From Escherichia coli (GTDB lineage: Bacteria; Pseudomonadota; Gammaproteobacteria; Enterobacterales; Enterobacteriaceae): a stretch of DNA of 64,000 nt. The DNA lies in the NCBI RefSeq assembly GCF_044647545.1, contig NZ_CP172818.1, one strand, 5' to 3'. The notes beneath the pieces were generated by a model. The model was not told the origin of the DNA. It ran no database searches and saw nothing but the letters and a program-made list of their open reading frames with translations. Positions 10,436 to 32,206 of the stretch are shown in pieces (within the stretch, counting starts at the first letter, position 1; each line of letters opens with the position of its first letter). A program made the translations under genes and the position numbers.

Positions 10436-11932
10436 GTGATGACAGAGCCGCATGTAGCAGTATTAAGCCAGGTCCAACAGTTTCTCGATCGTCAACACGG
10501 TCTTTATATTGATGGTCGTCCTGGCCCCGCACAAAGTGAAAAACGGTTGGCGATCTTTGATCCGGCCACCGGGCAAGAAATTGCGTCTACTGCTGATGCC
10601 AACGAAGCGGATGTAGATAACGCAGTCATGTCTGCCTGGCGGGCCTTTGTCTCGCGTCGCTGGGCCGGGCGATTACCCGCAGAGCGTGAACGTATTCTGC
10701 TACGTTTTGCTGATCTGGTGGAGCAGCACAGTGAGGAGCTGGCGCAACTGGAAACCCTGGAGCAAGGCAAGTCAATTGCCATTTCCCGTGCTTTTGAAGT
10801 GGGCTGTACGCTGAACTGGATGCGTTATACCGCCGGGTTAACGACCAAAATCGCGGGTAAAACGCTGGACTTGTCGATTCCCTTACCCCAGGGGGCGCGT
10901 TATCAGGCCTGGACGCGTAAAGAGCCGGTTGGCGTAGTGGCGGGAATTGTGCCATGGAACTTTCCGTTGATGATTGGTATGTGGAAGGTGATGCCAGCAC
11001 TGGCAGCAGGCTGTTCAATCGTGATTAAGCCTTCGGAAACCACGCCACTGACGATGTTGCGCGTGGCGGAACTGGCCAGCGAGGCTGGTATCCCTGATGG
11101 CGTTTTTAATGTCGTCACCGGGTCAGGTGCTGTATGCGGCGCGGCCCTGACGTCACATCCTCATGTTGCGAAAATCAGTTTTACCGGTTCAACCGCGACG
11201 GGAAAAGGTATTGCCAGAACTGCTGCTGATCACTTAACGCGTGTAACGCTGGAACTGGGCGGTAAAAACCCGGCAATTGTATTAAAAGATGCTGATCCGC
11301 AATGGGTTATTGAAGGCTTGATGACCGGAAGCTTCCTGAATCAAGGGCAAGTATGCGCCGCCAGTTCGCGAATTTATATTGAAGCGCCGTTGTTTGACAC
11401 GCTGGTTAGTGGATTTGAGCAGGCGGTAAAATCGTTGCAAGTGGGACCGGGGATGTCACCTGTTGCACAGATTAACCCTTTGGTTTCTCGTGCGCACTGC
11501 GACAAAGTGTGTTCATTCCTCGACGATGCGCAGGCACAGCAAGCAGAGCTGATTCGCGGGTCGAATGGACCACCAGAGGTATTATGTTGCGCCAACGCTA
11601 GTGCGGTAAAATCCCGATGCTAAATTGCGCTTAACTCGTGAAGAGGTGTTTGGTCCGGTGGTAAACCTGGTGCGAGTAAGCGGTGGAAGAGGCGTTACAA
11701 CTGGCAAACGACACGGAATATGGCTTAACTGCCAGTGTCTGGACGCAAAATCTCTCCAGGCTCTGGAATATAGCGATCGCTTACAGGCAGGGACGGTGTG
11801 GGTAAACAGCCATACCTTGATTGACGCTAACTACCGTTTGGTGGGATGAAGCAGTCAGGAACGGGCCGTGATTTTGGCCCCGACTGGCTGGACGGTTGGT
11901 GTGAAACTAAGTCGGTGTGTGTACGGTATTAA
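10436..11932 (+). pseudogene. feaB: phenylacetaldehyde dehydrogenase, frameshifted in its 3' third
   Basis: First ~385 codons intact (ORF 10436-11623, aldehyde dehydrogenase family); expected length 499 aa. Remainder recoverable only in shifted frames (ORF 11625-11849 [18 protein letters not shown]...); original stop context ...KSVCVRY* at 11930-11932. Confidence 0.8.
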
Positions 11933-11953
11933 TATTGGTTCGCTAATTAAGTA

Positions 11954-11979
11954 AAAAACGGCACCTGGTGCCGTTTTTT
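11954..11979. terminator. bidirectional intrinsic terminator between convergent feaB and tynA
   Basis: A6-CGGCACC..GGTGCCG-T6 hairpin flanked by A and T runs. Confidence 0.7.
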
Positions 11980-11991
11980 GTCTGAAAACAA

Positions 11992-14283
11992 TCACTTATC
12001 TTTCTTCAGCGCCCCTAGCGTTGGCGTTTCATAAAGAAGTTCCATGGTTTAAGCAGAGTATGTACCCATTCGGTCGGCATAATCGGCCACTCTTCAGCAC
12101 GGGCCACATGTGTGGTGCCGGTGGGTCATCCAGACAACGGCGTCGGTGTTGTCCAGCGACTCGTTATCTTTACTGTATTGTCCAAGACCGGTGTCATCAG
12201 TAGAACGGTTCAGGATATTTGCCTTCCGGGAAACGCTCGCCAGGATGATAACGCGTTACCCAGAAAGCTGCTTTGTCCATAAAGCTTAAACGATGATAGA
12301 TCCACTCATCCCAGGCGCCACTGGGCACCTTTTGCTACCGGGTGAGTACCGCCTGCATAAGGAATAATTTGATAGGAAACTGGATTGCCCATGCGGTTCT
12401 CTTTGTTGCGGGTTACTCAACAGACGAATCATGCCCCGGATCAAACTACGGCATCCTGTTCATTGCCGATGTTGTACTGATTAACTTGCATCAAGGTACT
12501 GGTGCGTCGGCCACCGGCAGTATTCGGTTTCCACTGGGTCCATCGCCACCAGGCTGTTATTCTCGCCATCTACATAAGGAATCGAGGCAGAAATTATCGA
12601 TCTGTTTGGTGTCAGTACCCACGATACTGTGATCGATAAGCGTGCCGTAGCGCGTGTCATCTTTCGCCGTCTCATCGTGCATGGTTTTCGCTTTAACACC
12701 TTTCACCGCTTCGATGCCCGTAGCACCGGCATCAATGCCAATAGTGCCGTTTTCATGGAAGATCCAGTCAAAATGTAGTCATAGTTACCCACTGTACTGA
12801 TCCAGCGCACCACTGACTCCCAGCATTCAGGTACTGACGTTGGGCTGGCCCATTTCCTGATGCTTATACTCCGGCCCGGCATAACGTTTCAAATACCGCG
12901 ATAGCGCGAGGATCTCCATCGGCACGCCAGTGTAGTCGGCGATGGTTTCATTAAGGAGCACTGCGTTAGACGGGGCATCTTTACCACGGCGAAATTGGTG
13001 AGGTTAGCGTGCCCATACCGTAGTCACCAGAGTCCAGATACGCTTTAAAGTACCAGCCAATATCCAGGATCACCGTAAGGCACAATAATGTCGCCGAGGA
13101 GAACCTTCGTGCATGACTTTGCGTTTGGTGCCGATATTGGTATATAGTCACGGTGGAGATCATAGGCCCGACGCGAGAGTTCATGCTGAGGTGAAAATCC
13201 CAGTTCCGCCAGTGAATAGTATCTCGCCAGTAATGGTGTAATTTTTACCTTCAGGCTCAATGATTTGCATAGGCTTGACTGCCGGAGCAACGCGGTCACG
13301 GCTATCAAATGGGCGTGCGGTCATTCACACGGAACTCCGGACCTTCTTCAATCTTAACGATTTTTTTCTGTTTCTGATCAACGACCGCCACCAGGTTTTC
13401 GATGGGATGTGCCCAGTAGTTCCATCGCCGACAGTCAAGATAGCTGATGACTTTGAGCAACCGGGCATCTTGTTTCAGGCCATCTTTACCATCGAAATAA
13501 CCTACGGTCAGCGGCGTGGTAATCACTTTTTTCGCATCAGTAATACCGCGTTTCTTCACGGCAGCGGCAAATTCTTCACTGTTGTTAATAATGTTCTGCA
13601 CACTGGCGAAATCATCCAGCAACACCATACCCGTGGCGTGTTTAATGGGTTCCAGGAGAGCAGTTTGTTGTTTTGCAGATCCACCACCGCTTCGATGATA
13701 TGTTTGCCGTCGAGCATAATGACGTCGGCTTTGCGCGGCTGGTCAACCGGTTTGTTTTCCAGCGCAAACGCCCAGACAGCTTCTTTATCTGGCGGTAGCA
13801 GGAGATCTCAGTAAAACAGGGTATTGGGTTTGAAGTCCCGCGGAAGCTTTAACAATTTCAACGGCCTGTTTAATTTCGTACCACAGTTCACGCATTAAGT
13901 GGGTGAGGGCGCTTTTATTACCTGAAAGGTTTGATCCAGACCGGACTGGAAAACATCGTTAATAAAGGTGTCGCAAAACCCAGGCCTTATTGTCTTTCAT
14001 ACGCTCCCGGCACTTGCAGTGCCAAGGTAGCCATTAACAATTGCTGTTTTGCGCACCAGGCTTCACTTTCACGTACGCGCCATCTTTAATCAGGGTAAAG
14101 ATCTGGGCGTAGTCGTCCCACTGCACATCGGCACCAAATTCTTTAAGCGTTTCATCCATTGGCACCATATGCGCTTCACCACCGTGGGCAAATACCGGCG
14201 CTTGCCAGGCGAAACTTAAGGCGACTGCCAACGCCAGGGTTGTTTTACGGGCAGAATCCGGAGAAAGAGGGCTTCCAGTTATT
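11992..14283 (-). pseudogene. tynA: copper/topaquinone amine oxidase (tyramine oxidase), heavily frameshifted
   Basis: Minus-strand fragments 14034-14315, 13305-13628, 13045-13308, 12981-13184 and 12481-12699 translate to successive pieces of TynA (e.g. ARKTTLALAVALSFAWQAPVFAHGGEAHMVPMD; MVLLDDFASVQNIINNSEEFAAAVKKRGITDAKK) separated by frame changes; stop ...LKKDK* at 11992-11994; start codon region also altered. Expected 757 aa. Confidence 0.75.
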
Positions 14284-14485
14284 AACCTCGTCAGATGTTG
14301 TGTTCTTGTTAGCAACCGCGCTCTGTGGGCGGTTTAGTCAGGTTCACATTATGAGTACTGATGCAAAGAAATCCTGCACCTCAGAGTTATTTGGCAGGTG
14401 TGCCCACTTTTTCATACAGTGGGTGCCCTGAAAATCAATGTACACATCATGCATAATGTGACAACGTCACAAAAGTTAGTGAAAT

Positions 14486-14516
14486 GAAAAAGGGCAACTG
14501 TTCGGGCCGTTGCCCT
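14486..14516 (-). terminator. intrinsic terminator downstream of paaZ
   Basis: GGGCAAC..GTTGCCC hairpin followed on the minus strand by a T5 run. Confidence 0.6.
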
Positions 14517-14527
14517 TCATTCACCGA

Positions 14528-16563
14528 TTAATCGACAAAATCACCATATCCTGGCCACCAGCGTCAGAATTGAATACAGCGCCACCGGGGTTTGATGCTG
14601 ATTGAATACCTCTACCGCCCATTCCACCACCTGTTGGTTTTTCTTCTGCGCTACGCTGTTTTTTCAGCGTCTTGCGCTTACAGGTGAGACGCACCTGGAT
14701 GGTATCGCCTGGCTTTACGGGTTCGATAAGCGCAAGTTTTCCAGCCCATAATTAGCAATGACCGGACCGACACCGGCATCGACAAACAGACCCGCAGAGC
14801 CGCAGAAAAAGCACAAAATACCCATGCACCACACGCTCACCGAAAATAGATTCGGCAGCAGCAGAATATTATCCATATGCGCATAGAAATAATCGCCGCT
14901 GAGGCAAGCAAAGTTAACAATATCGGCCTCTGTCATTGTGCGGCGGGAGTGGCAGGTATCCGCCTGGTTGTAGCTCCTCAAAATATTTGCGGAACGGATG
15001 AATACGATCTTCTTCGACTTTCGCACCACGCACCCACTGTTTACTGATAGCTGCAAGCATCGTCGGACTACCCTGAACAGCGGTTCGCTGCGTGTGATCC
15101 TTCACCCGCTCGTAAACCACCTAATTCTTCACCGCCTCCTGCGCGACCAGGCCCACCATGTAACAGTTGTGGCAGTCGGAGAGCCATGCCGGTGGATTCT
15201 TTTGCCGATTCCTCATTGAGGATCTGAATTCGCCCATGCGTACGTGCCGCGTCGGTAATAAACTGACGCGCAATTTGCGGATCAGCCGTCACCAGCGTTC
15301 CGCAAGGCTACCGCCGCCTGCACAAGCCAGTTGCAGAGCATGTCGCTGGTTTTGTGCTGGCATCAGCGTTGCGACAGGGCCAAAGGCTTCTGTTGCATGT
15401 ACCGCCGGTGTTTCATCCGGCTGCGGACAGTACAATAAGGTTGGCGGGAAAGAGCACCCGCAGCAGATAAATCCGCCTGACCACCGAGGCGAATCTCGCA
15501 TCCTGCAGCCAGCAATATGTTCACTTTTTCCTGCACATCGGCACGCTGCTCAGCATTTACCAGTGCGCCCATATTCACGCCTTCCTGAGCAGGATCACCG
15601 ACCACGACTTTCTGTAATCGCGCAACCAGGACGATTCACTGACAGCATTAACCAATGCCTGCGGCGCGATAATCCGCCGGATTGCCGTACATTTTTGCCC
15701 GGCTTTTGTGGTCATCTCACGCACAACTTCACGAATAAACAGCGCAAACTCCGAGTTAAATGCGGGTAACATCTTCGCCCAGTACGCAGCAGTTCAGGGA
15801 ATCAGCTTCCATAGTGAAGGGGATAGATTTGGCGACGATATTTGGCTGAACTCGCGGCGTCTCTGCAGGTCGCCGCTGACCCGTGAAAGTCACCACATCC
15901 TGGCTGTCCAGATAATCCAAAAGGTCGCCCGCACTACCGCAGATCAGACTAATTGCGCCTTCGGGAACAAGACCACTATCGACAATTGATTTCACCATCG
16001 CCTGAGTACGTTGGGCCGTCGCGGTAGCTGGTTTGATGATGGCTGGCATTCCGCCCAGCCACGTTGGTGCCAGCTTCCGGCGTTTTGCCACAGGGGAAGT
16101 TAAAGGCGTTAATATGCACTGCCACGCCTGAGCTTTGAGGTCAGTACATGGCGCGCGGCAAATCCACCTTCTTTCGATAAGGGGATCAATTCATCTTCCG
16201 GCCACAGCGTATCGTCGGCGGCTGCCCGGCTACCGAGGCTGGCGTAAGTAAATAACGTCCCAATGCCACCTTCAAATCAACCGAACTGTTGCCGCGTTGC
16301 GCCTGTTTGCGCAGAAAGACATAGAAGCGCTCTTTTTTCACTCAGCAGATGTTTAGCGACCGCTTTAAGCATCGCCGCACGTTCGATAAAGGTCATCACG
16401 CAGAAGCAGCCTTTTCAATGGCAAACTGCAACGGGCCACCGCCATATAGACCTTTCACTGGTCACTTCCCATAACGCCTCGCCGCTGATAGCGTGGTGAA
16501 TCAAACGGCTACCACCCCGCCAGACTGCCAGGTACCGGATAAGAAACTGGCTAACTGCTGCAT
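14528..16563 (-). pseudogene. paaZ: bifunctional oxepin-CoA hydrolase / aldehyde dehydrogenase, multiply frameshifted
   Basis: ATG intact at 16561-16563 and stop ...GDFVD* at 14528-14530, but interior split into fragments (15756-16091, 15575-15772, 15363-15605, 15068-15292, 14715-15056) that each match PaaZ segments; span 2036 nt versus 2046 expected (681 aa). Confidence 0.75.
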
Positions 16564-16792
16564 CGCTACTCTCCAGATGTTTCACATTTATGTTGCTAAT
16601 AGTTAAATTGCGAATCATAAAAAGCAAGGGTTCTTTTAACGAAATGTTAACTATGCAAATATGTATCACAACTGCGGAAAACATTAATGCACTGATAAAT
16701 AATGATTTATAAAAAATCGGGTGCGAAATCCGTCACAGTTCAAGCATACAAAATTTGTGATTTTAGTTAACCATTGTGTAACTTTCATAAAC

Positions 16793-16834
16793 AATGTGAT
16801 TCGTGTTTTTAATTAATTCGCGAACTTGGAATCG
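16793..16834. promoter_or_regulatory. PaaX-type operator half-site in the paaZ-paaA divergent promoter region
   Basis: AATGTGATTCGTGTT at 16793-16807 fits the PaaX box consensus WWTRTGATTCGYGWT as I remember it; an imperfect inverted partner GAATCG lies 26 nt downstream. Confidence 0.45.
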
Positions 16835-16847
16835 TAAAGGTAATAAC

Positions 16848-17773
16848 ATAACCCAAGAAGAACGCTTTGAGCAACGGATAGCCCAGGAAACGGCTATCGA
16901 GCCGCAGGACTGGATGCCAATAAGAAAGCACTGATCCGCCAGATTGGGCAGCATGCACACTGCAAATTGTGGTATGTTCCTGAAGGTAACTGGATCACTG
17001 GCGCACGACCTTTTGCAGCATAAAGCCATTCTGTTCGCCAAAGTCCAGGATGAAGCCGGTCATCGTCTGTATCTCTATAGCGCCGCCGAAACACTGGGCT
17101 GCACAGAGAAGACATCTACCAAAAAATGCTCAAACAACGATAAATATTCCTCCATCTTTAATTATCCGACATTGGTCTCCAGGGGCTGATATCGGCGTTA
17201 TCGGCTGGCTGGTGGAGTAGCAGCGATCGTCAATCAGGTGGCGTTATGTCGCACTTCTTATGGCCCGTATGCCAGAGCAATGGTGAAGATCTGCAAAGAA
17301 GAGAGTTTTTCACCAGCGTCAGGGGTTTGAAGCCTGCATGGCACTGGCGCAGGCGGCGAAGGACGCTCAAAAGCAGATGTTGCAAGACGCCATTAACCGT
17401 TTCTGGTGGCCAGCCTTAATGATGTTCGGGCCAAACGATGATAACTCGCCAAACAGCGCCAGAAGTACCGCCTGGAAAATCAAACGTTTCACCAACGACG
17501 AACTCGCCAGCGTTTCGTGGATAACACCATTCCACAGGTTGAAATGCTCGGTATGACCGTTCCTGACCCGGATCTGCATTTTGACACTGAAAGCGGTCAC
17601 TACCGCTTTGGTGGAAATCAACTGGCAGGAGTTTAACGAAGTAATTAACGGTCGCCGGAATTTGTAATCAGGAGAGGCTCGACGCCAAACGTAAAGCCTG
17701 GGAAGAAGGTACCTGGGTACGGGAAGCAGCGCTGGCCCATGCACAAAAACAACTTGCCCGTAAGGTCGCATAA
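16848..17773 (+). pseudogene. paaA: ring 1,2-phenylacetyl-CoA epoxidase subunit A, start codon lost and frameshifted
   Basis: Conserved N-terminus reads I-TQEERFEQRIAQETAIEPQDW with ATA in place of ATG at 16848-16850; later pieces (e.g. 17338-17556 MALAQAAKDAQKQMLQDAINRFWWPALMMFGPNDDNSPNSARS) in other frames; stop at 17771-17773. Expected 309 aa. Confidence 0.75.
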
Positions 17774-17784
17774 GGAGATTCAAA

Positions 17785-18069
17785 ATGAGTAATGTTTATT
17801 GGCCGTTATACGAAGTTTACCCGTTCGTGGCAAACAGGGCTTATCACACCGCCATGTTGGCAGTTTTTACATGCTGCCGATGAGCGGATGGCACTGAAAA
17901 TGCCGGTGATTGTTACACCGTCGTAGCGAAGGATGTTCAATTTGGGTGGTGAAGGCGAGTGAAATTGTTGCCTCGCAACCGGAAGAACGCGGTGAATTTT
18001 TTGATCCGGCTGAAGCAAGGTCTATCGCCATCCAACGTTTTACACCATCCCTGATGGCATTCAACATGA
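17785..18069 (+). pseudogene. paaB: epoxidase subunit B, frameshifted
   Basis: ATG at 17785 with MSNVYWPLYEV N-terminus; body recovered in a shifted frame (17910-18149 ...SEGCSIWVVKASEIVASQPEERGEFFDPAE...). Expected 95 aa; 3' end approximate. Confidence 0.65.
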
Positions 18070-18077
18070 GGTCGGAA

Positions 18078-18820
18078 ATGAATCAGTTAACGGCTTACAC
18101 CTTCGCCTGGGCGATAACTGCCTGGTGCTTCCAGCGGTTGGGTGAATAGTGCGGTCATGCACCGGAACTGGAAATCGATCTCGCACTGGCAAATATTGGA
18201 CTCGATTTATTAGGCCAGGCACGCAACTTCTTATCGTATGCCGCTGAATTAGCGGGAGAAGGCGATGAAGATACCCTGGCCTTCACCCCAACAAGCACCA
18301 GTTCAGCAACTTATTGTTGGTTGAACAGCCAAACGGCAATTTTGCCGACAACCGTCGCCAGTATTTCATCGATGCATGGCATGTGGCGCTCTTTACCATT
18401 CTGATGGAGAGCCGTGATCCGCGACTGGCGGCGATTTCTGCAAAGCGATTAAAGAAGCGCGTTATAGCCTGCGTTTTATTCGTGGCTGGCTGGAGCAACT
18501 GGGCAATGGTACTGACGTATACGGGCGAAAGAATGCCAGCAGGCCATCAACAAGTTGTGGCGTTTTACCGCCGAACTGTAGATGCCGACGAGATTGATAT
18601 TGCACTGAGTGAAGAGGGTATTGCGGTTGATCCACGCGCTTTTACGCGCAGCGTGGGAAGCCGAAGTTTTTGCCGGGATCAACGAAGCCACATTCAACGT
18701 ACCGCAGAGCAGGCGTATCGCACTGGCGGTAAAAAAGGACTGCATACCGAACACCTTGGACCCATGCTGGCAGAAATGCAGTTATTGTTTGAGCGTGTCT
18801 TGCCCGGTCAGCAATGGTAA
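18078..18820 (+). pseudogene. paaC: epoxidase subunit C, frameshifted
   Basis: Start MNQLTAYT at 18078; C-terminal portion in ORF 18314-18820 ends ...LPGQQW*; span 743 nt, not a multiple of 3, versus 747 expected (248 aa). Confidence 0.7.
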
Positions 18821-18834
18821 CAGAGGAGGTGGGT

Positions 18835-19325
18835 ATGCAACGTATCAGCCACCATTCCGCCGCCACAGGTTCATCCAGATATGGGCGCTACTGGGCGCGA
18901 TCCCGGACCGGAGATCCCGGTGCTGACCATTACCGATTTAGGCATGGTGCGTAATGTGACACAGATGGAAAGAATGGGTGATCGGCTTTACGCCGACTTA
19001 TTCCGGTTGTCCGGCAACGGAACGTTGATTGGCGCGATACGTGAGGCAATGACAACCCACGGGTTTACCCGTACGGTTGTGCTGCAACTCGACCCGGCAT
19101 GGACCACCGACTGGATGACCCCCGATGCCCGTGAGCGTCTGCGACGGTATGGCATTAGCCCGCCCGGCCGGAACAGTTGCCGGCCCATTTGCCGCCAGAA
19201 GTACGTTGCCCGCGCTGCGCCAGCGTCCATCCACACTTATCAGTGAATTTGGTTCCACGGCCTGCAAAGCATTGTACCGCTGCGATAGTTGCCACAAACC
19301 TTTCGATTATTTCAAATGTATTTGA
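18835..19325 (+). pseudogene. paaD: epoxidase subunit D, frameshifted
   Basis: ATG at 18835; fragments 18881-19246 (IPVLTITDLGMVRNVTQM...) and 19125-19325 (...CDSCHKPFDYFKCI*) in different frames. Confidence 0.7.
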
Positions 19326-19332
19326 GGATGCC

Positions 19333-20397
19333 ATGACAACGTTTCATTCCTTAACAGTGGCAAAAGTGGGCCCGGAAACCCGTGATGCGGTGACCATTAC
19401 CTTTGCATGCAGCCTTTGCAGGAGGCGTATCACTTTCGCCCCGGTCAACATTTGACCTTAAAAGCCAGTCTTGATGGTGAAGAATTAGCCATTGTTCTCC
19501 ATTTGCCGCAGCTACCTGCCTGGCGAAATTAGTGTGGCGGTGAAAGCCATTGAAGGCGGACGTTTCTCCCGCTATGCCCGCGAACACATCCGCCAGGGTA
19601 TGACGCTGGAGGTCATGGTGCCGCAGGGGCATTTCGGCTATCAGCCACAGGCCGAACACCAGGGCCGCTATCTGGCTATTGCAGCAGGATCAGGTATTAC
19701 GCCAATGCTGGCGATTATCGCCACCACTTTCAAACCGAGCCTGAAAGTCAGTTCACCCTGATCTACGGTAACCGTACCAGCCAGAGCATGATGTTTCGCC
19801 AGGCACTGGCAGACCTGAAAGACAAATATCCTCAGCGTTTACAGTTGTTGTGCATTTTCAGTCAGGAAACCCTCGACAGCGATCTGCTTCACGGGCGTAT
19901 TGACGGTGAAAAATTACGTGGCTTGGGGCCTCGCTCATTGATTTTTCGTCTTTATGATGAGGCGTTTGCTTTGTGGTCCGGCGGCGATGATGGATGAGAC
20001 GGAAGCCGCCTTAAAAGCACTGGGAATGCCAGATAAAACCATTCATCTGGAGCGGTTTAATACGCCTGGCACGCGCGTCAAAGCGTCGCGTTAACGTGCA
20101 AAGTGACGGACAAAAGTGACTGTACGTCAGGATCGGCGGGATCGGGAAATCGTGCTTAATGCCGACGATGAAAGCATTCTCGATGCGGCATTGCGCCAGG
20201 GGGCTGATCTGCCCTATGCCTGCAAAGGCGGCGTCTGTGCGACCTGCAAATGCAAAGTGCTGCGTGGCGAAGTGGCGATGGAAACCAATTACAGTCTGGA
20301 ACCGGATGAACTGGCCGCAGGTTATGTGTTGAGTTGCCAGGCACTGCCGCTGACCAGCGATGTGGTGGTTGACTTTGACGCGAAGGGGATGGCATCA
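19333..20397 (+). pseudogene. paaE: epoxidase reductase subunit E (ferredoxin-NADPH reductase), frameshifted and stop codon lost
   Basis: Start MTTFHSLTVAK at 19333; fragments 19492-19761 and 20116-20406 (2Fe-2S motif CKGGVCATCKCK) in different frames; the expected overlapping TGA stop reads TCA at 20395-20397. Confidence 0.7.
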
Positions 20398-21172
20398 GCG
20401 AACTGATCGTCAGCCGTCAGCAACAGGTGCTTGCTGCTGACCCTTAACCGTCCCGCCGCACGTAATGCGCTGAGAATAATGCCCTTCTGACGCAACTGGT
20501 AAATGAACTGGAAGCTGCGGCTACCGATAGCAGCATTTCGGTCTGTGTGATTACCGGTAATGCACGCTTTTTTGCCGCTGGGGCCGATCTCAACGAAATG
20601 GCAGAAAAAGATCTCGCGGCCACCTTAAACGATACACGTCCGCAGCTATGGGCGCGATTGCAGGCCTTTAATAAACCACTTATCGCAGCCGTCAATGGTT
20701 ACGCGCTTGGGGCGGGTTGCGAACTGGCATTGTTGTGCGATGTGGTGGTTGCCGGAGAGAACGCGCGTTTTGCGTTGCTTTTTACAGGAAATCACTCTCG
20801 GCATCATGCCAGGCGCAGGAGGAACGCAACGTTTAATCCGTAGTGTCGGTAAATCGTTAGCCAGCAAAAATGGTGCTGAGCGGAGAAAGTATCACCGCTC
20901 AGCAAGCACAGCAGGCCGGGCTGGTTAGCAACATCTTCCCCAGCGATTTAACCCTCGAATACGCCTTACAGCTGGCATCGAAAATGGCACGTCACTCGCC
21001 GCTGGCCTTACAAGCGGCAAAGCAAGCGCTGCGCCAGTCGCAGGAAGTGGCTTTGCAAGCCGGACTTGCCCAGGAGCGACAGTTATTCACCTTGCTGGCG
21101 GCAACAGAAGATCGTCATGAAGGCATCTCCGCTTTCTTACAAAAACGCACGCCCGACTTTAAAGGACGCTAA
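20394..21172 (+). pseudogene. paaF: 2,3-dehydroadipyl-CoA hydratase (enoyl-CoA hydratase), start codon lost and frameshifted in the 5' two-thirds
   Basis: N-terminus reads I-SELIVSRQQ with ATC in place of ATG at 20394-20396; frame breaks near 20775 and 20850; last 100 codons (20870-21172) intact, ending ...RTPDFKGR*. Expected 255 aa. Confidence 0.75.
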
Positions 21173-21960
21173 TGATGGAATTCATCCTCAGTCATGTAGA
21201 AAAGGGCGTGATGACACTAACGCTCAACCGCCCGGAACGCCTGAACAGTTTTAATGATGAGATGCACGCACAACTGGCAGAGTGCCTGAAACAGGTCGAG
21301 CGCGACGACACTATCCGTTGCCTGTTACTTACAGGTGCCGGGCGCGGATTTTGTGCTGGTCAGGATCTTAACGATCGTAACGTTGATCCCACAGGCCCCG
21401 CACCGGATTTAGGGATGTCAGTTGAACGTTTCTATAACCCACTGGTACGTCGCCTGGCAAAACTGCCAAAACCGGTGATCTGTGCAGTCAATGGCGTGGC
21501 GGCAGGGGCAGGCGCAACACTGGCACTGGGGGGCGACATCGTTATTGCTGCCCGTTCAGCAAAATTCGTCATGGCGTTTAGTAAGTTAGGCTTAATACCC
21601 GATTGCGGTGGAACCTGGTTACTGCCACGCGTTGCCGGACGAGCGCGCGCCATGGGGCTGGCACTGCTGGGGAATCAACTGAGTGCTGAACAGGCGCACG
21701 AATGGGGGATGATCTGGCAGGTTGTTGATGATGAAACGCTGGCAGATACCGCGCAACAGCTGGCACGGCATCTGGCGACACAACCGACATTTGGTCTTGG
21801 ACTTATCAAGCAAGCGATAAATAGCGCTGAAACCAATACGCTCGATACGCAACTGGATCTGGAACGTGACTATCAGCGACTTGCCGGACGGAGCGCAGAT
21901 TATCGTGAAGGTGTCAGTGCGTTCCTGGCTAAACGCTCACCGCAGTTCACGGGGAAATAG
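21172..21960 (+). CDS. paaG: 1,2-epoxyphenylacetyl-CoA isomerase (crotonase fold), 262 aa
   Basis: Intact 262-aa ORF MMEFILSHVEKGVMTLTLNRP...; start overlaps paaF stop by 1 bp. Confidence 0.9.
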   Translation: MMEFILSHVEKGVMTLTLNRPERLNSFNDEMHAQLAECLKQVERDDTIRCLLLTGAGRGFCAGQDLNDRNVDPTGPAPDLGMSVERFYNPLVRRLAKLPKPVICAVNGVAAGAGATLALGGDIVIAARSAKFVMAFSKLGLIPDCGGTWLLPRVAGRARAMGLALLGNQLSAEQAHEWGMIWQVVDDETLADTAQQLARHLATQPTFGLGLIKQAINSAETNTLDTQLDLERDYQRLAGRSADYREGVSAFLAKRSPQFTGK

Positions 21961-21961
21961 C

Positions 21962-23389
21962 ATGATGATAAATGTGCAAACTGTGGCAGTGATTGGGAGC
22001 GGCACCATGGGGGCAGGCATTGCTGAAGTTGCTGCCAGTCATGGACACCAGGTTTTACTGTATGACATTTCTGCTGAAGCGCTGACCCGCGCAATCGACG
22101 GGATACACGCGCGGCTAAATTCACGCGTGACGCGGGGAAAACTGACTGCTGAAACCTGTGAACGCACATTGAAACGCCTGATCCCGGTGACCGATATTCA
22201 CGCGCTGGCAGCTGCGGACCTGGTCATTGAAGCGGCGTCTGAACGTCTGGAAGTCAAAAAAGCGCTCTTTGCACAGCTGGCGGAAGTTTGCCCGCCACAA
22301 ACGCTATTGACCACTAACACTTCGTCAATCTCTATAACCGCGATTGCTGCGGAGATAAAAAATCCTGAACGTGTTGCGGGGCTGCATTTTTTTAACCCGG
22401 CACCGGTGATGAAGTTGGTGGAGGTGGTCAGTGGGCTGGCAACGGCGGCGGAAGTTGTTGAGCAGTTGTGTGAACTAACGTTGAGTTGGGGTAAGCAGCC
22501 TGTGCGCTGTCATTCGACTCCTGGATTTATCGTTAACCGTGTTGCGCGTCCTTATTATTCCGAGGCCTGGCGGGCACTGGAAGAGCAGGTTGCTGCACCA
22601 GAAGTGATTGACGCTGCACTTCGCGATGGCGCTGGTTTCCCGATGGGGCCGCTGGAATTAACCGATCTGATTGGTCAGGACGTCAATTTTGCTGTCACCT
22701 GTTCGGTGTTTAACGCTTTCTGGCAGGAGCGTCGTTTTTTACCTTCGCTGGTGCAACAGGAACTGGTGATTGGTGGACGGTTGGGCAAGAAAAGTGGGCT
22801 GGGCGTGTACGACTGGCGCGCGGAACGTGAGGCAGTTGTTGGCCTGGAAGCGGTAAGCGACAGTTTTAGCCCAATGAAAGTAGAAAAGAAAAGTGACGGT
22901 GTCACGGAAATTGACGATGTTTTATTGATTGAGACACAAGGCGAGACGGCACAGGCGCTGGCAATACGACTGGCACGCCCGGTGGTAGTGATCGATAAAA
23001 TGGCGGGCAAGGTGGTGACCATTGCTGCTGCAGCGGTGAACCCGGACTCAGCGACCCGCAAGGCCATTTATTACCTGCAACAGCAGGGCAAAACAGTGCT
23101 GCAAATTGCAGATTACCCAGGAATGCTGATTTGGCGAACGGTAGCAATGATCATCAATGAAGCCCTTGATGCGCTTCAAAAAGGCGTGGCCTCTGAACAG
23201 GATATCGATACCGCCATGCGTCTTGGGGTGAATTATCCATATGGCCCACTTGCCTGGGGAGCGCAACTTGGCTGGCAGCGAATATTAAGGCTCCTTGAAA
23301 ATCTACAGCATCACTATGGCGAAGAACGCTATCGCCCATGTTCATTGCTGCGCCAACGGGCGCTTCTGGAGAGCGGTTATGAGTCATAA
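21962..23389 (+). CDS. paaH: 3-hydroxyadipyl-CoA dehydrogenase, 475 aa
   Basis: ORF 21866-23389 trimmed to MMINVQTVAVIGSGTMGAGIA (Rossmann motif) directly after the paaG stop; 475 aa. Confidence 0.9.
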   Translation: MMINVQTVAVIGSGTMGAGIAEVAASHGHQVLLYDISAEALTRAIDGIHARLNSRVTRGKLTAETCERTLKRLIPVTDIHALAAADLVIEAASERLEVKKALFAQLAEVCPPQTLLTTNTSSISITAIAAEIKNPERVAGLHFFNPAPVMKLVEVVSGLATAAEVVEQLCELTLSWGKQPVRCHSTPGFIVNRVARPYYSEAWRALEEQVAAPEVIDAALRDGAGFPMGPLELTDLIGQDVNFAVTCSVFNAFWQERRFLPSLVQQELVIGGRLGKKSGLGVYDWRAEREAVVGLEAVSDSFSPMKVEKKSDGVTEIDDVLLIETQGETAQALAIRLARPVVVIDKMAGKVVTIAAAAVNPDSATRKAIYYLQQQGKTVLQIADYPGMLIWRTVAMIINEALDALQKGVASEQDIDTAMRLGVNYPYGPLAWGAQLGWQRILRLLENLQHHYGEERYRPCSLLRQRALLESGYES

Positions 23390-23801
23390 GGCCTGGCAAA
23401 ATGCCCATGCAATGTATGAGAACGATGCCTGCGCCAAAGCGCTTGGCATCGACATTATCTCAATGGATGAAGGCTTTGCTGTAGTGACCATGACCGTCAC
23501 TGCACAAATGCTTAACGGTCATCAAAGTTGCCACGGCGGGCAGCTATTTTCACTGGCTGATACTGCCTTTGCCTACGCCTGCAATAGCCAGGGGCTGGCA
23601 GCCGTCGCTTCTGCCTGCACGATTGATTTTTTGCGTCCAGGCTTTGCCGGAGACACCTTAACTGCTACTGCGCAGGTACGTCATCAGGGCAAGCAAACCG
23701 GTGTTTACGACATCGAAATTGTTAACCAACAACAAAAAACGGTTGCGCTGTTTCGCGGTAAATCTCACCGCATCGGCGGCACCATTACAGGAGAAGCCTG
23801 A
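23379..23801 (+). CDS. paaI: hotdog-fold acyl-CoA thioesterase, 140 aa
   Basis: ORF 23295-23801 trimmed to MSHKAWQNAHAMYEND; 140 aa. Confidence 0.85.
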   Translation: MSHKAWQNAHAMYENDACAKALGIDIISMDEGFAVVTMTVTAQMLNGHQSCHGGQLFSLADTAFAYACNSQGLAAVASACTIDFLRPGFAGDTLTATAQVRHQGKQTGVYDIEIVNQQQKTVALFRGKSHRIGGTITGEA

Positions 23802-25006
23802 TGCGTGAAGCCTTTATTTGTGACGGAATTCGTACGCCAATTGGTCGCTACGGCGGGGCATTATCAAGTGTTCGGGCTGATGATCTGGCTGCTATCCCTT
23901 TGCGGGAACTGCTGGTGCGAAACCCGCGTCTCGATGCGGAGTGTATCGATGATGTGATCCTCGGCTGTGCTAATCAGGCGGGAGAAGATAACCGTAACGT
24001 AGCCCGGATGGCGACTTTACTGGCGGGGCTGCCGCAGAGTGTTTCCGGCACAACCATTAACCGCTTGTGTGGTTCCGGGCTGGACGCACTGGGGTTTGCC
24101 GCACGGGCGATTAAAGCGGGCGATGGCGATTTGCTGATCGCCGGTGGCGTGGAGTCAATGTCACGGGCACCGTTTGTTATGGGCAAGGCAGCCAGTGCAT
24201 TTTCTCGTCAGGCTGAGATGTTCGATACCACTATTGGCTGGCGATTTGTGAACCCGCTCATGGCTCAGCAATTTGGAACTGACAGCATGCCGGAAACGGC
24301 AGAGAATGTAGCTGAACTGTTAAAAATCTCACGAGAAGATCAAGATAGTTTTGCGCTACGCAGTCAGCAACGTACGGCAAAAGCGCAATCCTCAGGCATT
24401 CTGGCTGAGGAGATTGTTCCGGTTGTGTTGAAAAACAAGAAAGGTGTTGTAACAGAAATACAACATGATGAGCATCTGCGCCCGGAAACGACGCTGGAAC
24501 AGTTACGTGGGTTAAAAGCACCATTTCGTGCCAATGGGGTGATTACCGCAGGCAATGCTTCCGGGGTGAATGACGGAGCCGCTGCGTTGATTATTGCCAG
24601 TGAACAGATGGCAGCAGCGCAAGGACTGACACCGCGGGCGCGTATCGTAGCCATGGCAACCGCCGGGGTGGAACCGCGCCTGATGGGGCTTGGTCCGGTG
24701 CCTGCAACTCGCCGGGTGCTGGAACGCGCAGGGCTGAGTATTCACGATATGGACGTGATTGAACTGAACGAAGCGTTCGCGGCCCAGGCGTTGGGTGTAC
24801 TACGCGAATTGGGGCTGCCTGATGATGCCCCACATGTTAACCCCAACGGAGGCGCTATCGCCTTAGGCCATCCGTTGGGAATGAGTGGTGCCCGCCTGGC
24901 ACTGGCTGCCAGCCATGAGCTGCATCGGCGTAACGGTCGTTACGCATTGTGCACCATGTGCATCGGTGTCGGTCAGGGCATCGCCATGATTCTGGAGCGT
25001 GTTTGA
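23801..25006 (+). CDS. paaJ: 3-oxoadipyl-CoA / 3-oxo-5,6-dehydrosuberyl-CoA thiolase, 401 aa
   Basis: Intact 401-aa thiolase ORF ([19 protein letters not shown]...CIGVGQG). Confidence 0.9.
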
Positions 25007-25032
25007 GCATATCAACCTGCGAGTACCCTACA

Positions 25033-26346
25033 ATGATAACCAATACAAAGCTTGACCCGATTGAAACCGCGTCTGTTGATGAGTTACAGGCGTTGCAAAC
25101 ACAGCGTCTGAAATGGACGCTCAAACACGCGTATGAAAATGTGCCGATGTATCGGCGCAAATTCGACGCAGCAGGCGTACATCCTGATGATTTCAGGGAA
25201 CTTTCAGACCTGCGTAAATTTCCCTGTACCACCAAACAGGATCTGCGCGACAACTATCCCTTTGACACCTTTGCCGTGCCAATGGAACAAGTGGTGCGCA
25301 TTCATGCTTCTTCGGGAACCACAGGTAAACCGACAGTTGTCGGCTATACGCAAAACGATATTGATAACTGGGCCAATATTGTAGCGCGTTCTTTGCGTGC
25401 GGCAGGGGGCTCGCCCAAAGACAAAATTCATGTTGCCTATGGTTACGGCCTGTTTACTGGTGGGCTGGGTGCGCACTATGGTGCCGAACGTCTGGGCGCT
25501 ACGGTGATCCCGATGTCTGGCGGGCAGACGGAAAAACAAGCGCAACTGATCCGTGATTTTCAACCAGATATGATCATGGTTACGCCATCTTATTGCCTTA
25601 ACCTGATTGAAGAGCTGGAGCGGCAGTTGGGCGGTGATGCCAGCGGTTGCTCGCTGCGGGTTGGAGTATTTGGTGCTGAGCCGTGGACACAGGCCATGCG
25701 TAAAGAGATTGAGCGTCGCCTGGGGATCACCGCACTGGATATTTATGGCCTGTCAGAAGTGATGGGGCCGGGGGTGGCGATGGAGTGTCTGGAAACTACC
25801 GACGGCCCAACCATTTGGGAAGATCATTTCTATCCTGAAATTGTTAATCCTCATGACGGCACACCGCTTGCCGATGGTGAACATGGCGAACTGTTATTCA
25901 CCACGCTGACCAAAGAAGCATTGCCGGTCATTCGTTACCGCACGCGTGATTTAACCCGACTGTTACCAGGAACGGCGCGGACTATGCGCCGCATGGATCG
26001 CATCAGCGGACGCAGCGATGACATGTTGATTATTCGCGGTGTAAATGTCTTTCCGTCACAACTGGAAGAAGAGATTGTCAAATTCGAACATTTATCGCCG
26101 CATTACCAACTGGAGGTGAACCGCCGGGGGCATCTTGATTCACTTTCTGTGAAAGTGGAGTTGAAAGAAAGTAGCCTGACATTGACGCATGAGCAGCGTT
26201 GCCAGGTATGCCACCAGCTGCGCCATCGGATTAAGTCGATGGTGGGGATCTCTACCGATGTGATGATCGTTAACTGTGGCAGTATCCCGCGTTCAGAAGG
26301 CAAGGCGTGTCGGGTGTTTGATCTGCGCAATATTGTTGGTGCCTGA
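25033..26346 (+). CDS. paaK: phenylacetate-CoA ligase, 437 aa
   Basis: ORF 24949-26346 trimmed to MITNTKLDPIETASVDELQALQ; adenylate-forming motif SSGTTGKPT present. Confidence 0.9.
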   Translation: MITNTKLDPIETASVDELQALQTQRLKWTLKHAYENVPMYRRKFDAAGVHPDDFRELSDLRKFPCTTKQDLRDNYPFDTFAVPMEQVVRIHASSGTTGKPTVVGYTQNDIDNWANIVARSLRAAGGSPKDKIHVAYGYGLFTGGLGAHYGAERLGATVIPMSGGQTEKQAQLIRDFQPDMIMVTPSYCLNLIEELERQLGGDASGCSLRVGVFGAEPWTQAMRKEIERRLGITALDIYGLSEVMGPGVAMECLETTDGPTIWEDHFYPEIVNPHDGTPLADGEHGELLFTTLTKEALPVIRYRTRDLTRLLPGTARTMRRMDRISGRSDDMLIIRGVNVFPSQLEEEIVKFEHLSPHYQLEVNRRGHLDSLSVKVELKESSLTLTHEQRCQVCHQLRHRIKSMVGISTDVMIVNCGSIPRSEGKACRVFDLRNIVGA

Positions 26347-26446
26347 CGTATCGTCTGGCCCTGGTGGGGTAAAGCGCCAGGGCCAGAAGTCGATACGACC
26401 TGTGCTATGATTCATAAATCACAACAATAACAACAGACTGAAGCGA

Positions 26447-27397
26447 ATGAGTAAACTTGATACTTTTATCCAACATGCTGTAAACGCTGTTCCGGTCAGT
26501 GGCACATCTTTGATCTCCTCTCTGTATGGTGATTCGCTTTCCCATCGTGGTGGTGAAATCTGGTTGGGTAGTCTGGCTGCTTTGCTGGAAGGGCTGGGAT
26601 TTGGTGAGCGTTTCGTGCGCACCGCTTTGTTTCGTCTTAATAAAGAAGGCTGGCTGGATGTTTCCCGCATCGGGCGACGCAGTTTCTATAGCCTCAGTGA
26701 TAAAGGCTTGCGCCTGACGCGACGGGCAGAAAGTAAAATTTATCGCGCAGAGCAACCTGCATGGGATGGTAAATGGCTCCTGTTGCTCTCGGAAGGTTTA
26801 GATAAATCAACGCTGGCTGATGTCAAAAAGCAGTTGATCTGGCAAGGTTTTGGCGCACTGGCACCCAGCCTGATGGCATCGCCGTCGCAAAAACTGGCCG
26901 ATGTACAGACACTTTTGCATGAAGCGGGTGTGGCGGATAACGTGATTTGTTTTGAAGCGCAAATACCACTGGCGCTTTCTCGCGCAGCACTGCGTGCCAG
27001 AGTAGAAGAGTGCTGGCATTTAACTGAACAAAATGCCATGTACGAAACCTTTATTCAGTCATTCCGCCCGCTGGTGCCGCTTTTAAAAGAGGCGGCAGAC
27101 GAGTTAACCCCGGAGCGGGCATTTCATATTCAGCTTTTACTGATCCATTTTTATCGCCGTGTCGTCCTTAAAGACCCATTGTTGCCGGAGGAGTTGCTTC
27201 CGGCACACTGGGCAGGGCATACGGCGCGTCAGCTGTGTATCAACATTTATCAGCGCGTAGCGCCTGCTGCTTTAGCGTTCGTTAGTGAAAAAGGTGAAAC
27301 CTCGGTCGGTGAATTGCCTGCGCCGGGAAGCCTGTATTTTCAACGTTTTGGCGGCTTGAATATTGAACAGGAGGCGTTATGCCAATTTATCAGATAG
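26447..27397 (+). CDS. paaX: phenylacetyl-CoA-responsive transcriptional repressor of the paa operon, 316 aa
   Basis: Intact 316-aa ORF; preceded by a TGATTC motif at 26407. Confidence 0.9.
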
Positions 27398-28038
27398 ACG
27401 GTCTGACTCCGGTTGTGCCAGAAGAGAGTTTTGTCCATCCGACAGCGGTATTGATCGGCGATGTTATTCTCGGCAAGGGCGTTTACGTTGGGCCAAATGC
27501 CAGCCTGCGTGGCGATTTTGGTCGTATCGTGGTGAAAGATAGCGCGAACATTCAGGATAATTGCGTTATGCACGGTTTTCCCGAGCAGGATACTGTCGTG
27601 GAAGAAGATGGACATATTGGTCATAGCGCTATCCTTCACGGCTGCATTATCCGCCGCAATGCATTAGTGGGAATGAACGCGGTAGTGATAGACGGTGCGG
27701 TGATTGGCGAGAACAGCATTGTTGGCGCATCCGCATTTGTGAAAGCCAAAGCAGAAATGCCAGCTAATTACCTGATTGTCGGCAGCCCGGCGAAAGCGAT
27801 TCGTGAACTCAGTGAGCAGGAGTTGGCATGGAAAAAGCAGGGTACGCATGAGTACCAGGTGCTGGTGACACGCTGTAAGCAGACGTTACATCAAGTCGAG
27901 CCATTGCGGGAAGTTGAACCTGGAGGCAGCGCCTGGTATTTGATGAGAATCTGCGACGAAACAGTAACAGATGTAAAATTATTTTGTCCCTTTAATTATA
28001 AAGCAGAGTTATGTTTAAGCTCTGCTTTATTTATTTGA
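27379..28038 (+). CDS. paaY: hexapeptide-repeat (gamma-carbonic-anhydrase-like) thioesterase PaaY, probably frameshifted near the 3' end
   Basis: ORF of 219 aa overlapping the paaX stop by 19 bp; expected 196 aa. The last ~30 codons read through a terminator hairpin, and an out-of-frame TAA at 27965-27967 sits where the native stop should be if two single-base deletions near 27925-27960 are restored. Confidence 0.7.
28001..28037 (+). terminator. intrinsic terminator after paaY
   Basis: AAGCAGAG (28001-28008) and CTCTGCTT (28020-28027) stem with 11-nt loop followed by a T-rich tail. Confidence 0.6.
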
Positions 28039-28297
28039 GTATTAATTCATACCGTTTTTTCATCATATAATTATTTATAATGAGAATGTGGTTTTAATTT
28101 GTAATTTATATTATATACACAATTTATATATTTCATGGTCTTTTTTTATTCACCTGAATTATAATTGTGAATTATAGGAAAGTATGTTTGATTAGATAAT
28201 AATCTACTGGCAATATTGGATGTCTTCTATGTTTTAAATAACTAATTGGTCGGGTTAGTGCATCCGGCTTTCTTTATATTCGCCAGAAGGATTTATT

Positions 28298-30820
28298 ATG
28301 CAAAGGAAAACTCTATTGTCGGCCTGTATTGCATTAGCTCTGAGTGGTCAGGGTTGGGCGGCAGATATCACAGAGGTAGAAACCACCACAGGTGAAAAGA
28401 AAAATACCAATGTGACTTGTCCGGCAGACCCAGGAAAACTCAGTCCGGAAGAGCTTAAACGCTTACCCTCTGAATGCTCTCCTTTAGTCGAACAAAACCT
28501 GATGCCATGGCTTTCCACAGGCGCTGCTGCGTTAATCACGGCCTTAGCCGTAGTGGAACTAAACGACGATGATGATCATCATCATCGCAACAATTCTCCA
28601 CTCCCACCGACACCCCCTGATGATGAATCAGACGACACTCCAGTTCCCCCAACTCCTGGCGGAGATGAGATAATACCGGACGATCCGGATGATACGCCTA
28701 CACCTCCCAAACCGGTTTCGTTTAATAATGACGTTATTCTCGATAAAACAGAAAAAACGTTAACTATTCGCGATTCAGTTTTTACTTATACCGAGAATGC
28801 TGACGGGACTATATCTCTGCAAGATAGCAATGGTCGTAAGGCAACGATTAATCTTTGGCAGATTGATGAAGCGAATAACACTGTTGCCCTTGAAGGGGTG
28901 AGCGCAGATGGCGCAACGAAGTGGCAATATAATCACAACGGTGAGCTTGTTATTACGGGTGATAATGCCACAGTAAACAACAATGGCAAAACCACCGTTG
29001 ACGGTAAAGATTCCACCGGTACGGAAATCAACGGTAATAACGGGAAAGTGATTCAGGACGGCGATCTGGATGTCAGCGGCGGCGGTCACGGTATTGATAT
29101 CACCGGTGACAGCGCGACGGTGGATAACAAGGGCACCATGACCGTCACCGATCCGGAGTCCATGGGTATCCAGATCGACGGTGACAAGGCCATCGTCAAT
29201 AACGAAGGCGAGAGCACCATCACCAACGGTGGCACCGGCACCCAGATTAATGGTGATGACGCCACGGCAAACAACAACGGCAAAACCACCGTTGACGGCA
29301 AGGATTCCACCGGTACGGAAATCAACGGTAATAACGGAAAAGTTATTCAGGACGGCGATCTGGATGTCAGCGGCGGCGGTCACGGTATTGATATCACCGG
29401 CGACAGCGCAACGGTGGATAACAAGGGCACCATGACCGTCACCGATCCGGAGTCCATCGGTATCCAGGTTGACGGCGACCAGGCGGTTGTTAACAACGAA
29501 GGCGAGAGCGCCATCACCAACGGTGGCACCGGCACGCAGATTAACGGTGATGACGCCACGGCAAACAACAACGGCAAAACCACCGTTGACGGCAAGGATT
29601 CCACCGGTACGGAAATTGCTGGCAATAACGGGAAGGTGATTCAGGACGGCGATCTGGATGTCAGCGGCGGCGGTCACGGTATTGATATCACCGGCGACAG
29701 CGCAACGGTGGATAACAAGGGCACCATGACCGTCACCGATCCGGAGTCCATCGGTATCCAGATTGACGGCGACCAGGCCATCGTCAATAACGAAGGCGAG
29801 AGCACTATCACCAATGGCGGCACCGGCACTCAGATCAACGGTAACGACGCCACCGCGAATAACAGTGGAAAAACCACTGTTGATGGAAAAGATTCCACGG
29901 GTACCAAAATCGCGGGCAATATCGGCATTGTAAATCTGGATGGTAGCCTGACTGTTACAGGCGGTGCGCATGGTGTTGAGAACATTGGTGACAACGGCAC
30001 GGTTAACAACAAAGGAGATATTGTTGTTTCCGATACTGGATCGATTGGCGTGCTCATCAACGGTGAGGGGGCAACAGTATCCAATACGGGTGATGTTAAC
30101 GTTAGCAATGAAGCGACAGGGTTCAGCATCACAACCAACAGTGGGAAGGTTTCGCTGGCAGGCAGTATGCAGGTTGGCGATTTCTCGACCGGGGTAGATC
30201 TTAATGGCAACAATAACAGCGTGACGCTGGCGGCAAAAGATCTAAAAGTGGTCGGGCAGAAAGCGACGGGCATAAACGTTTCTGGCGATGCGAATACAGT
30301 GAATATCACTGGTAACGTTCTGGTTGATAAGGATAAAACCGCAGACAATGCGGCGGAATATTTCTTCGATCCATCCGTGGGTATCAACGTTTACGGCAGT
30401 GATAATAACGTGACGCTGGATGGAAAGTTAACTGTTGTATCAGACAGTGAGGTTACTTCTCGTCAGAGTAATTTATTTGATGGCAGCGCAGAGAAAACGT
30501 CAGGTCTGGTTGTGATTGGCGATGGCAATACCGTTAATATGAATGGTGGACTTGAACTGATTGGAGAGAAAAACGCGCTTGCAGATGGGTCGCAGGTTAC
30601 TTCCTTGCGCACAGGATATAGTTATACCAGCGTTATTGTCGTTAGTGGTGAGTCGTCGGTATATCTGAATGGAGATACGACAATCAGCGGAGAATTCCCT
30701 CTGGGGTTTGCCGGGGTTATTCGGGTACAGGATAAAGCTTTGCTGGAAATTGGCAGTGGCGCTACGCTAACAATGCAGGATATTGACAGTTTTGAACATC
30801 TGGTGACAGTAGTACCCAGG
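28298..30820 (+). pseudogene. ydbA: autotransporter adhesin, N-terminal (signal peptide plus passenger) fragment truncated by IS2
   Basis: ORF begins MQRKTLLSACIALALSGQGWA (signal peptide), followed by a Pro/Asp-rich linker and G/T/N/D-rich beta-helix-type repeats; reading frame runs straight into the IS2 terminal inverted repeat at 30821. Confidence 0.85.
28967..29990 (+). repeat. tandem 294-bp (98-aa) coding repeats, about 3.4 copies, in the ydbA passenger domain
   Basis: Unit ATxNNNGKTTVDGKDSTGTEI.GNNGKVIQDGDLDVSGGGHGIDITGDSATVDNKGTMTVTDPES.GIQ.DGD.A.VNNEGES.ITNGGTGTQINGxD starts at about 28967, 29261, 29555 and 29848; copies 2 and 3 are about 94% identical at protein level. Confidence 0.85.
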
Positions 30821-30831
30821 TGGATTTGCCC

Positions 30832-31737
30832 CTATATTTCCAGACATCTGTTATCACTTAACCCATTACAAGCCCGCTGCCGCAGATATTCCCGTGGCGA
30901 GCGATAACCCAGCGCACTATGCGGATGCCATTCGTTATAATGCTCGAACGCCTCTGCAAGGTTCTTTGCTGCCGTTAACCCGTCTGGTTTGGGCATGATA
31001 CTGATGTAGTCACGCTTTATCGTTTTCACGAAGCTCTCTGCTATTCCGTTACTCTCCGGACTCCGCACCGCCGTGTTCTTCGGTTCAAGTCCCAACATCC
31101 GGGCGAACTGGCGTGTTTCATTAGCCCGGTAGCATGAACCATTATCCGTCAGCCACTCCACTGGAGACGACGGAAGATCGTTGCCGAAGCGGCGTTCCAC
31201 CGCTCCCAGCATGACGTCCTGTACTGTTTCACTGTTGAAGCCGCCGGTAGTGACCGCCCAGTGCAGTGCCTCACGATCACAGCAGTCCAGCGCGAACGTG
31301 ACACGCAGTCTCTCTCCGTTATCACAGCAGAACTCGAACCCGTCAGAGCACCATCGCTGATTGCTTTCTTTCACGGCCACTCTGCCTGTATGTGCCCGTT
31401 TCGATGGCGGTACAGCAGGTTTTCGCTCAAGCAACAGCGCATTCTGGCGCATGATCCGGTAAACACGTTTGGCATTGATCGCAGGCATACCATCAAGTTC
31501 TGCCTGTCTGCGAAGCAGCGCCCATACCCGACGATAACCATACGTTGGCAGCTCTCCGATAACATGGTGTATACGGAGAAGCACATCCGTATCATCAGTG
31601 TGACGACTGCGGCGGCCATCCATCCAGTCATCGGTTCGTCTGAGAATGACGTGCAACTGCGCACGCGACACCCGGAGACAACGGCTGACTAAGCTTACTC
31701 CCCATCCCCGGGCAATAAGGGCGCGTGCGCTATCCAC
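30832..31737 (-). CDS. insD: IS2 transposase OrfB (InsD), 301 aa
   Basis: 301-aa ORF with DDE integrase-core motifs; overlaps insC as expected for the programmed -1 frameshift fusion. Confidence 0.9.
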
Positions 31738-32060
31738 TTTTTTGCCCGTCCATATTCAACGGCTTCTTTGAGGAGTTCATTTTCCATCGTTTTCTTGCCG
31801 AGCAGGCGCTGGAGTTCTTTAATCTGCTTCATGGCGGCAGCAAGTTCAGAGGCAGGAACAACCTGTTCTCCGGCGGCGACAGCAGTAAGACTTCCTTCCT
31901 GGTATTGCTTACGCCAGAGAAATAACTGGCTGGCTGCTACACCATGTTGCCGGGCAACGAGGGAGACCGTCATCCCCGGTTCAAAGCTCTGCTGAACAAT
32001 TGCGATCTTTTCCTGTGTGGTACGCCGTCTGCGTTTCTCCGGCCCTAAGACATCAATCAT
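31695..32060 (-). CDS. insC: IS2 OrfA (InsC) HTH protein, 121 aa
   Basis: ORF 31695-32105 trimmed to [24 protein letters not shown]. Confidence 0.85.
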
Positions 32061-32206
32061 CTGTTCTCCAATGACTAGTCTAAAAACTAGTATTAAGACT
32101 ATCACTTATTTAAGTGATATTGGTTGTCTGGAGATTCAGGGGGCCAGTCTAAACCCCAGAACTTACTTATGCTGATTCCGGTGCGAAAATTGTTAATAAA
32201 GGTACT

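Follow-up and report, generated by a model that had tools for sequence, protein, structure and literature searches.

An extended paaY reading frame across a terminator in Escherichia coli is probably an artifact of a chimeric chromosome sequence

The paaY reading frame and its C-terminal extension

PaaY is a hexapeptide-repeat (gamma-carbonic-anhydrase-like) thioesterase of the paaXY operon. It hydrolyses a dead-end CoA ester that inhibits PaaZ, and it is co-transcribed with paaX (PMC9493321). The same context is present in the window (the entire 64,000-nt stretch of contig NZ_CP172818.1 analysed here), where paaX (26447-27397) overlaps the paaY start at 27379, and only the last ~152 nt of this paaX come from the genome that is the source of paaY. 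A preliminary description of the stretch proposed that the open reading frame (ORF) from 27379 is 219 codons long and runs across a terminator, that PaaY has 196 amino acids, and that two single-base deletions lie upstream of an out-of-frame TAA. All three points were confirmed. The reading frame and its surroundings consist of the following features:

27379 to 28038, plus strand: chimeric paaY ORF of 219 codons; codons 1-182 are native ST648-type PaaY, and 183-219 are an out-of-frame tail
27923 to 27924, plus strand: deletion 1, a C missing between these positions (native CCTGG-C-AGG), 45 nt from the seam at 27968/27969
27956 to 27958, plus strand: deletion 2, native CGA-CC-GAA and window CGA-C-GAA (C lost at 27957), 12 nt from the seam
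27965 to 27967, plus strand: native paaY stop codon TAA, out of frame in the window
27998 to 28037, plus strand: intrinsic terminator of K-12 paaY, a 13-bp hairpin (27998-28030) and a T-rich tail, part of the K-12 filler described below

The annotated paaY genes of K-12 MG1655, NCTC9699, and MS6198, a genome of the ST648 lineage, are all 591 nt long and encode 196 aa; a reference PaaY with the same extension, or one annotated at about 219 aa, was not found. In a three-way alignment, the window gene lacks two single C nucleotides relative to both K-12 and MS6198. These deletions are 33 nt apart, and the first is immediately 3′ of a CCTGG (Dcm) motif. The frame shifts after codon 182, so that 37 unrelated residues stand in place of 14 native ones, and the shifted ORF ends at a TGA (28036-28038) beyond the hairpin. 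Putting both C nucleotides back in silico yields the native 196-aa protein with its stop at the TAA, while restoring either one leaves the tail shifted, with a product of 205 aa. Placed in a true ST648 context, the doubly deleted ORF would stop after 198 aa.

The 13-pair hairpin is followed by TTATTTGAGT and was detected as terminator-like, with a fold energy of -19.3 kcal/mol (z = -3.2). The stem-loop and T-tract described previously are therefore present, although the stem begins at 27998 and not at 28001. Its assignment as the terminator of this paaY did not hold: it is K-12 filler and lies 3′ of paaY in no ST648 genome. Comparison of the locus and its alignment in MS6198 found the K-12 terminator absent 3′ of paaY, and the sequence 3′ of paaY in ST648 genomes differs from the K-12 terminator region. 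Judged from these comparisons, the hairpin does not share a genome of origin with the ORF. In a real arrangement of this kind, the hairpin would presumably form less readily, and termination be weaker, when a ribosome halts within the T-tract.

At the protein level, the 219-aa product scores 356.6 bits against the NCBIfam PaaY equivalog model TIGR02287 and passes its cutoff of 319.6, compared with 371.7 bits for native ST648 PaaY. It covers the profile only at positions 1-183 of 192, and thus does not give a full-length match with the conserved C-terminal tail and a length of ~195-201 aa. Hexapep domains are present in the product. The alignment with 8gpm, the nearest solved structure and homologue, spans residues 1-180; since homology ends only at residue 180, the hexapeptide-repeat core is untouched. 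Compared with E. coli PaaY (paaXY operon, TIGR02287), residues 1-182 are the same as in the ST648 allele WP_022645645.1 of MS6198, and the difference is confined to the 14 native C-terminal residues replaced by 37 others. The native tail (...EPxRKRLVFDxxLxPK) is moderately conserved in an alignment with 13 orthologues, and the window tail is unrelated to it.

These comparisons bear on whether the 219-aa form could be a functional, C-terminally extended PaaY isoform, or the product of programmed frameshifting, with translation through the hairpin modulating termination. The position of the stop within the T-tract fits this idea, because ribosomes translating to that point could in principle keep the hairpin from forming. 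However, most PaaY orthologues among the matches listed in a protein search have 195-201 aa and share the conserved tail, and no protein cluster in that search carries the extension of the window ORF. Partly similar extended PaaY proteins occur only as singleton clusters, each with different frameshifts, and the exact 219-aa product was absent from an assembly index of 153 billion gene calls. With an ORF and a hairpin of different genome origin as well, such an isoform is scarcely credible. A conserved extended isoform was rejected, being effectively refuted by the three-way alignment, the orthologue tails, and the intact genes of the listed genomes presented below.

Three sources of sequence in the window

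The window is a mosaic of three sources: an ST648-type backbone, filler from K-12 MG1655, and a noisy block that carries a third allele. The parts that interrupt the backbone, and the island of backbone sequence between them, are as follows (features without orientation are marked unstranded):

9506 to 27245, unstranded: filler from feaR to paaX, at the site of the ST648 feaR'-paaX' deletion, identical to K-12 except for the noisy block
11572 to 20933, unstranded: the "main decay block" of the preliminary description, a third natural allele, similar to that of strain BS-04, copied with ~5% error
27246 to 27968, plus strand: ST648-type island with a paaX 3′ remnant and paaY; 10 of 10 SNPs relative to K-12 are common to MS6198
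27969 to 36915, unstranded: filler with the paaY-ydbA spacer and ydbA::IS2/IS30, identical to MG1655 except at 30800-30820, at the site of the ST648 ydbA deletion
30800 to 30820, unstranded: 21-nt graft that differs from K-12 ydbA and adjoins the left end of IS2

Positions 1-9505, 27246-27968, and 36916-64000 (37.3 kb) are identical to MS6198 except for the two paaY deletions. Identity to this genome is 100.000% over 1-9505, 36916-41916, and 40916-64000, and many ST648-type genomes match 37000-61000 at 100% identity. The filler is equally exact with respect to its own source, with 0 differences from MG1655 in 9506-11571, 20934-27245, and 27969-36915 except for the 21-nt patch. The ydbA::IS2/IS30 arrangement is held by 352 genomes, and 40 of 40 among those listed are K-12 laboratory derivatives.

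The boundaries between these sources coincide with deletions in the ST648 lineage. In MS6198 and its relatives, the segment feaB-tynA-paaZ-paaA..K and ydbA are deleted, and a truncated feaR abuts the last ~150 nt of paaX, followed by paaY and directly by pdxI. Of the paa region, ST648 genomes retain only the 723-nt paaX'-paaY island. The seams lie at 9505/9506, 27245/27246, 27968/27969, and 36915/36916, and each of the four source switches can be placed to within at most 72 nt, the interval from a deletion junction to the informative SNP closest to it. The ST648 left flank joined to K-12 feaR-feaB was found in no complete genome, and the best full-length match to positions 1-11000 has 98.5% identity.

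The natural form of the locus is visible in MS6198, where L003 43055-43986 corresponds to window positions 9300-9505 joined to 27246-27968 and retains the paaX remnant with a full-length orphan paaY. In MS6198, 13 nt (L003 43988-44000), possibly a remnant of the ydbA 3′ end, separate the region of the paaY stop from the sequence 5′ of pdxI. These 13 nt are missing from the window, which has an 8.9-kb K-12 segment instead.

The noisy block and the IS2 flank

The noisy block holds the feaB 3′ end, tynA, paaZ, paaA-E, and the paaF 5′ end. It departs from K-12 by 294 substitutions and 188 indel events; most indels are of 1-2 nt, and insertions and deletions occur in similar numbers. The substitutions are strand-asymmetric over its whole length, with A<->G at 121 and C<->T at 45 (p ~3e-9), and A<->C at 60 and G<->T at 12 (p ~8e-9). 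They are also in excess at third codon positions, and this prompted a comparison with BS-04, the natural sequence that matches the block best. Across 11000-21500, the window has the BS-04 base at 79 of the 82 sites that differ between K-12 and BS-04 and the K-12 base at 1, a site outside the noisy block. After allowing for natural SNPs, the errors are roughly uniform over codon positions. A reading of the block as K-12 sequence with added noise was rejected on the basis of the third-position excess and the BS-04 alleles.

Errors in the block are not enriched at methylation motifs (Dcm, 9 observed and 13.5 expected; Dam, 15 observed and 15.3 expected), nor are indels enriched in homopolymers (72 of 151 lie beside an identical base, with ~44% expected by chance). 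Because enrichment at Dam or Dcm sites and in homopolymers is lacking, the errors do not name a sequencing platform. Most simply, the block would be one long read of another strain that escaped error correction, introduced for example as a contaminant or by barcode cross-talk. The preliminary description took the altered interval as decay and suggested that damage extends past it. This biological reading is not supported, as the interval is a noisy third-allele copy inside K-12 filler. Beyond the main block, altered patches do occur, a second in paaY and a third at 30800-30820, but they are most likely not biological damage.

The patch at 30800-30820 has a recognizable source. Together with the adjoining IS2 end (30800-30850), it matches 51 of 51 nt of an IS2 copy in a fimbrial gene of ST648 genomes (in strain ST648, NZ_CP008697.1, ~2443962), located ~120 kb from the paa locus. 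The sequence 5′ of 30800 is K-12 ydbA again. A graft of this kind had been predicted beforehand from the hypothesis that ST648 reads were placed on a K-12 template, and the match then bore it out. No biological process known to us would move 21 nt from the flank of a distant IS in this manner; mapping of reads onto a reference yields grafts of this kind. Deliberate in-silico simulation of decay was rejected as the main reading, since the strand asymmetry, the third-strain SNPs, and the IS2-flank graft speak against it; if true, it would equally make the feature not real.

A true recombinant chromosome between K-12 and an ST648 strain, formed for example by conjugation, would have paaY really reading into the K-12 terminator. 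Clinical isolates are commonly mated with K-12 strains, J53 among them, and the filler is DNA of a K-12 laboratory strain. However, recombination would need four crossovers, each within ~70 nt or less of a heterology boundary, with the 723-nt recipient island kept between them. It would leave unexplained both the graft of a distant IS2 flank and a 9.4-kb third-allele block with 188 indel events. Given also that the junction of ST648 flank and K-12 feaR-feaB is found in no complete genome, we consider a recombinant chromosome very unlikely.

Origin of the paaY frameshift

Based on these sequence comparisons, the paaY frameshift very probably arose as an error in the consensus, at the margin of an island with presumably thin read support, within a chimera built on a reference template. 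The isolate would be of the ST648 lineage and the template E. coli K-12 MG1655, with isolate DNA used where it was present and K-12 sequence left where the isolate has its deletions (feaR'..paaX' and ydbA). One stretch of filler would then have been overwritten by what appears to be a single noisy long read of a third strain. Between the two filled gaps, isolate DNA would survive only as the paaX'-paaY island. The 219-aa read-through ORF would then come from two causes, the erroneous deletions and the fusion of the island to K-12 filler with the K-12 paaY terminator in it. If so, paaY of the isolate itself would show CCTGGCAGG and CGACCGAAA at the deletion sites. The mosaic with its seams, the IS2-flank graft, the third-allele block, and the lack of the deletions in all other genomes searched are demonstrated, whereas the origin of the deletions is inferred, as is the exact pipeline, which may have been a consensus on a reference template or the polishing of a draft from mixed material.

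The position of the deletions is a reason to regard them as consensus errors. They are 45 and 12 nt from the right edge of the island, where thin support and ragged ends are expected, and simple arithmetic gives a chance of ~2e-5 that both events in 37.3 kb would fall within 45 nt of one of four seams. Two observations weigh against a consensus error: long homopolymers are absent at both deletions, and no anomaly marks the seams at 9505/9506, 27245/27246, and 36915/36916. Overhanging reads were considered as a cause by searching the ST648 sequence 3′ of paaY, which does not account for the deletions.

To see whether the deletions recur in nature, we surveyed 5426 complete E. coli genomes, 4011 of which carry paaY. 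Neither deletion is present in any of these 4011, and the exact 64-nt pattern across both deletions has no match among GTDB species-representative genomes. The best full-length matches are always 2 nt longer than the window sequence (744 and 742 nt, 183 and 181 nt, and 725 and 723 nt, respectively). For the island (27246-27968), all 15 of the best-matching complete genomes listed are 99.7% identical over 725 nt as compared with 723 nt, and they therefore differ from it only by the two C nucleotides. Each of the 15 has an intact 196-aa paaY. The extension thus does not appear to be a natural variant. A genuine frameshift pseudogene is expected to be reproducible in independent sequence of the same lineage, and the available genomes indicate that this one is not.

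It is nevertheless conceivable, although improbable, that both C deletions are genuine in the ST648 isolate and that an orphan paaY is beginning to decay, with only the K-12 continuation being artifactual. In ST648, paaY is an orphan since the catabolic paa genes are deleted, so its inactivation would be unsurprising, and selection may be relaxed on a gene left beside a truncated paaX. The deletions are not typical homopolymer errors, and the remainder of the island is the exact ST648 allele. Under such a scenario, paaY would be at the first step of an ordinary early pseudogenization, with a product of 198 aa that does not cross the K-12 terminator. Weighing against it are the intact genes of the 15 listed genomes and the location of the deletions beside a seam, in a sequence with other demonstrated artifacts. 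In addition, mutation is very unlikely to have produced two independent indels at a spacing of 33 nt and left the rest of 37.3 kb unaltered.

The consensus error that we favor has counterparts in other template-filled sequences. These likewise have reference sequence at sample deletions, source switches where the deletions of the sample are joined, repeat boundaries of the reference overwritten by flanking sequence from a repeat copy elsewhere in the sample, and small indels beside coverage edges. The window differs from them in its 9.4-kb noisy block, for which an additional source, presumably a stray long read of a third strain, would be needed. The locus also resembles frameshifted pseudogenes within decaying operons, as in Shigella or host-restricted lineages, in which small indels break reading frames in a dispensable catabolic cluster. 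In contrast to decay of that type, the surroundings here are base-perfect K-12 or ST648 sequence, the errors are strand-asymmetric, and the paa cluster is simply absent from the backbone lineage.

A reading as biological decay fails because the window is a chimera; the preliminary description was right about the anatomy of the frameshift, and the biological feature is most likely not real. About 27 kb (9506-36915) are not the genome of the organism that supplied the rest, which matters for data quality and not for biology. Calls of decay, frameshifts, or pseudogenes within 9506-36915 are suspect and should be discarded or re-examined against the reads. Identifying the nearest complete genome for each flank, and looking for repeat-copy flanks grafted onto repeat boundaries, are checks for chimeras that can be reused elsewhere.

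Outside this interval, gap (type I glyceraldehyde-3-phosphate dehydrogenase; window ~52625-53625, L004 11710-12710) is annotated as a frameshifted pseudogene in MS6198. The window is 100% identical to MS6198 there, so the gap frameshift is a trait of the lineage and has no connection with the artifacts. The gene ynbC is annotated as frameshifted in the K-12 record (L001 34668-36426) and is intact in MS6198 (L004 1135-2892); the window follows MS6198 at this position (~42050-43800), and its ynbC is therefore intact.
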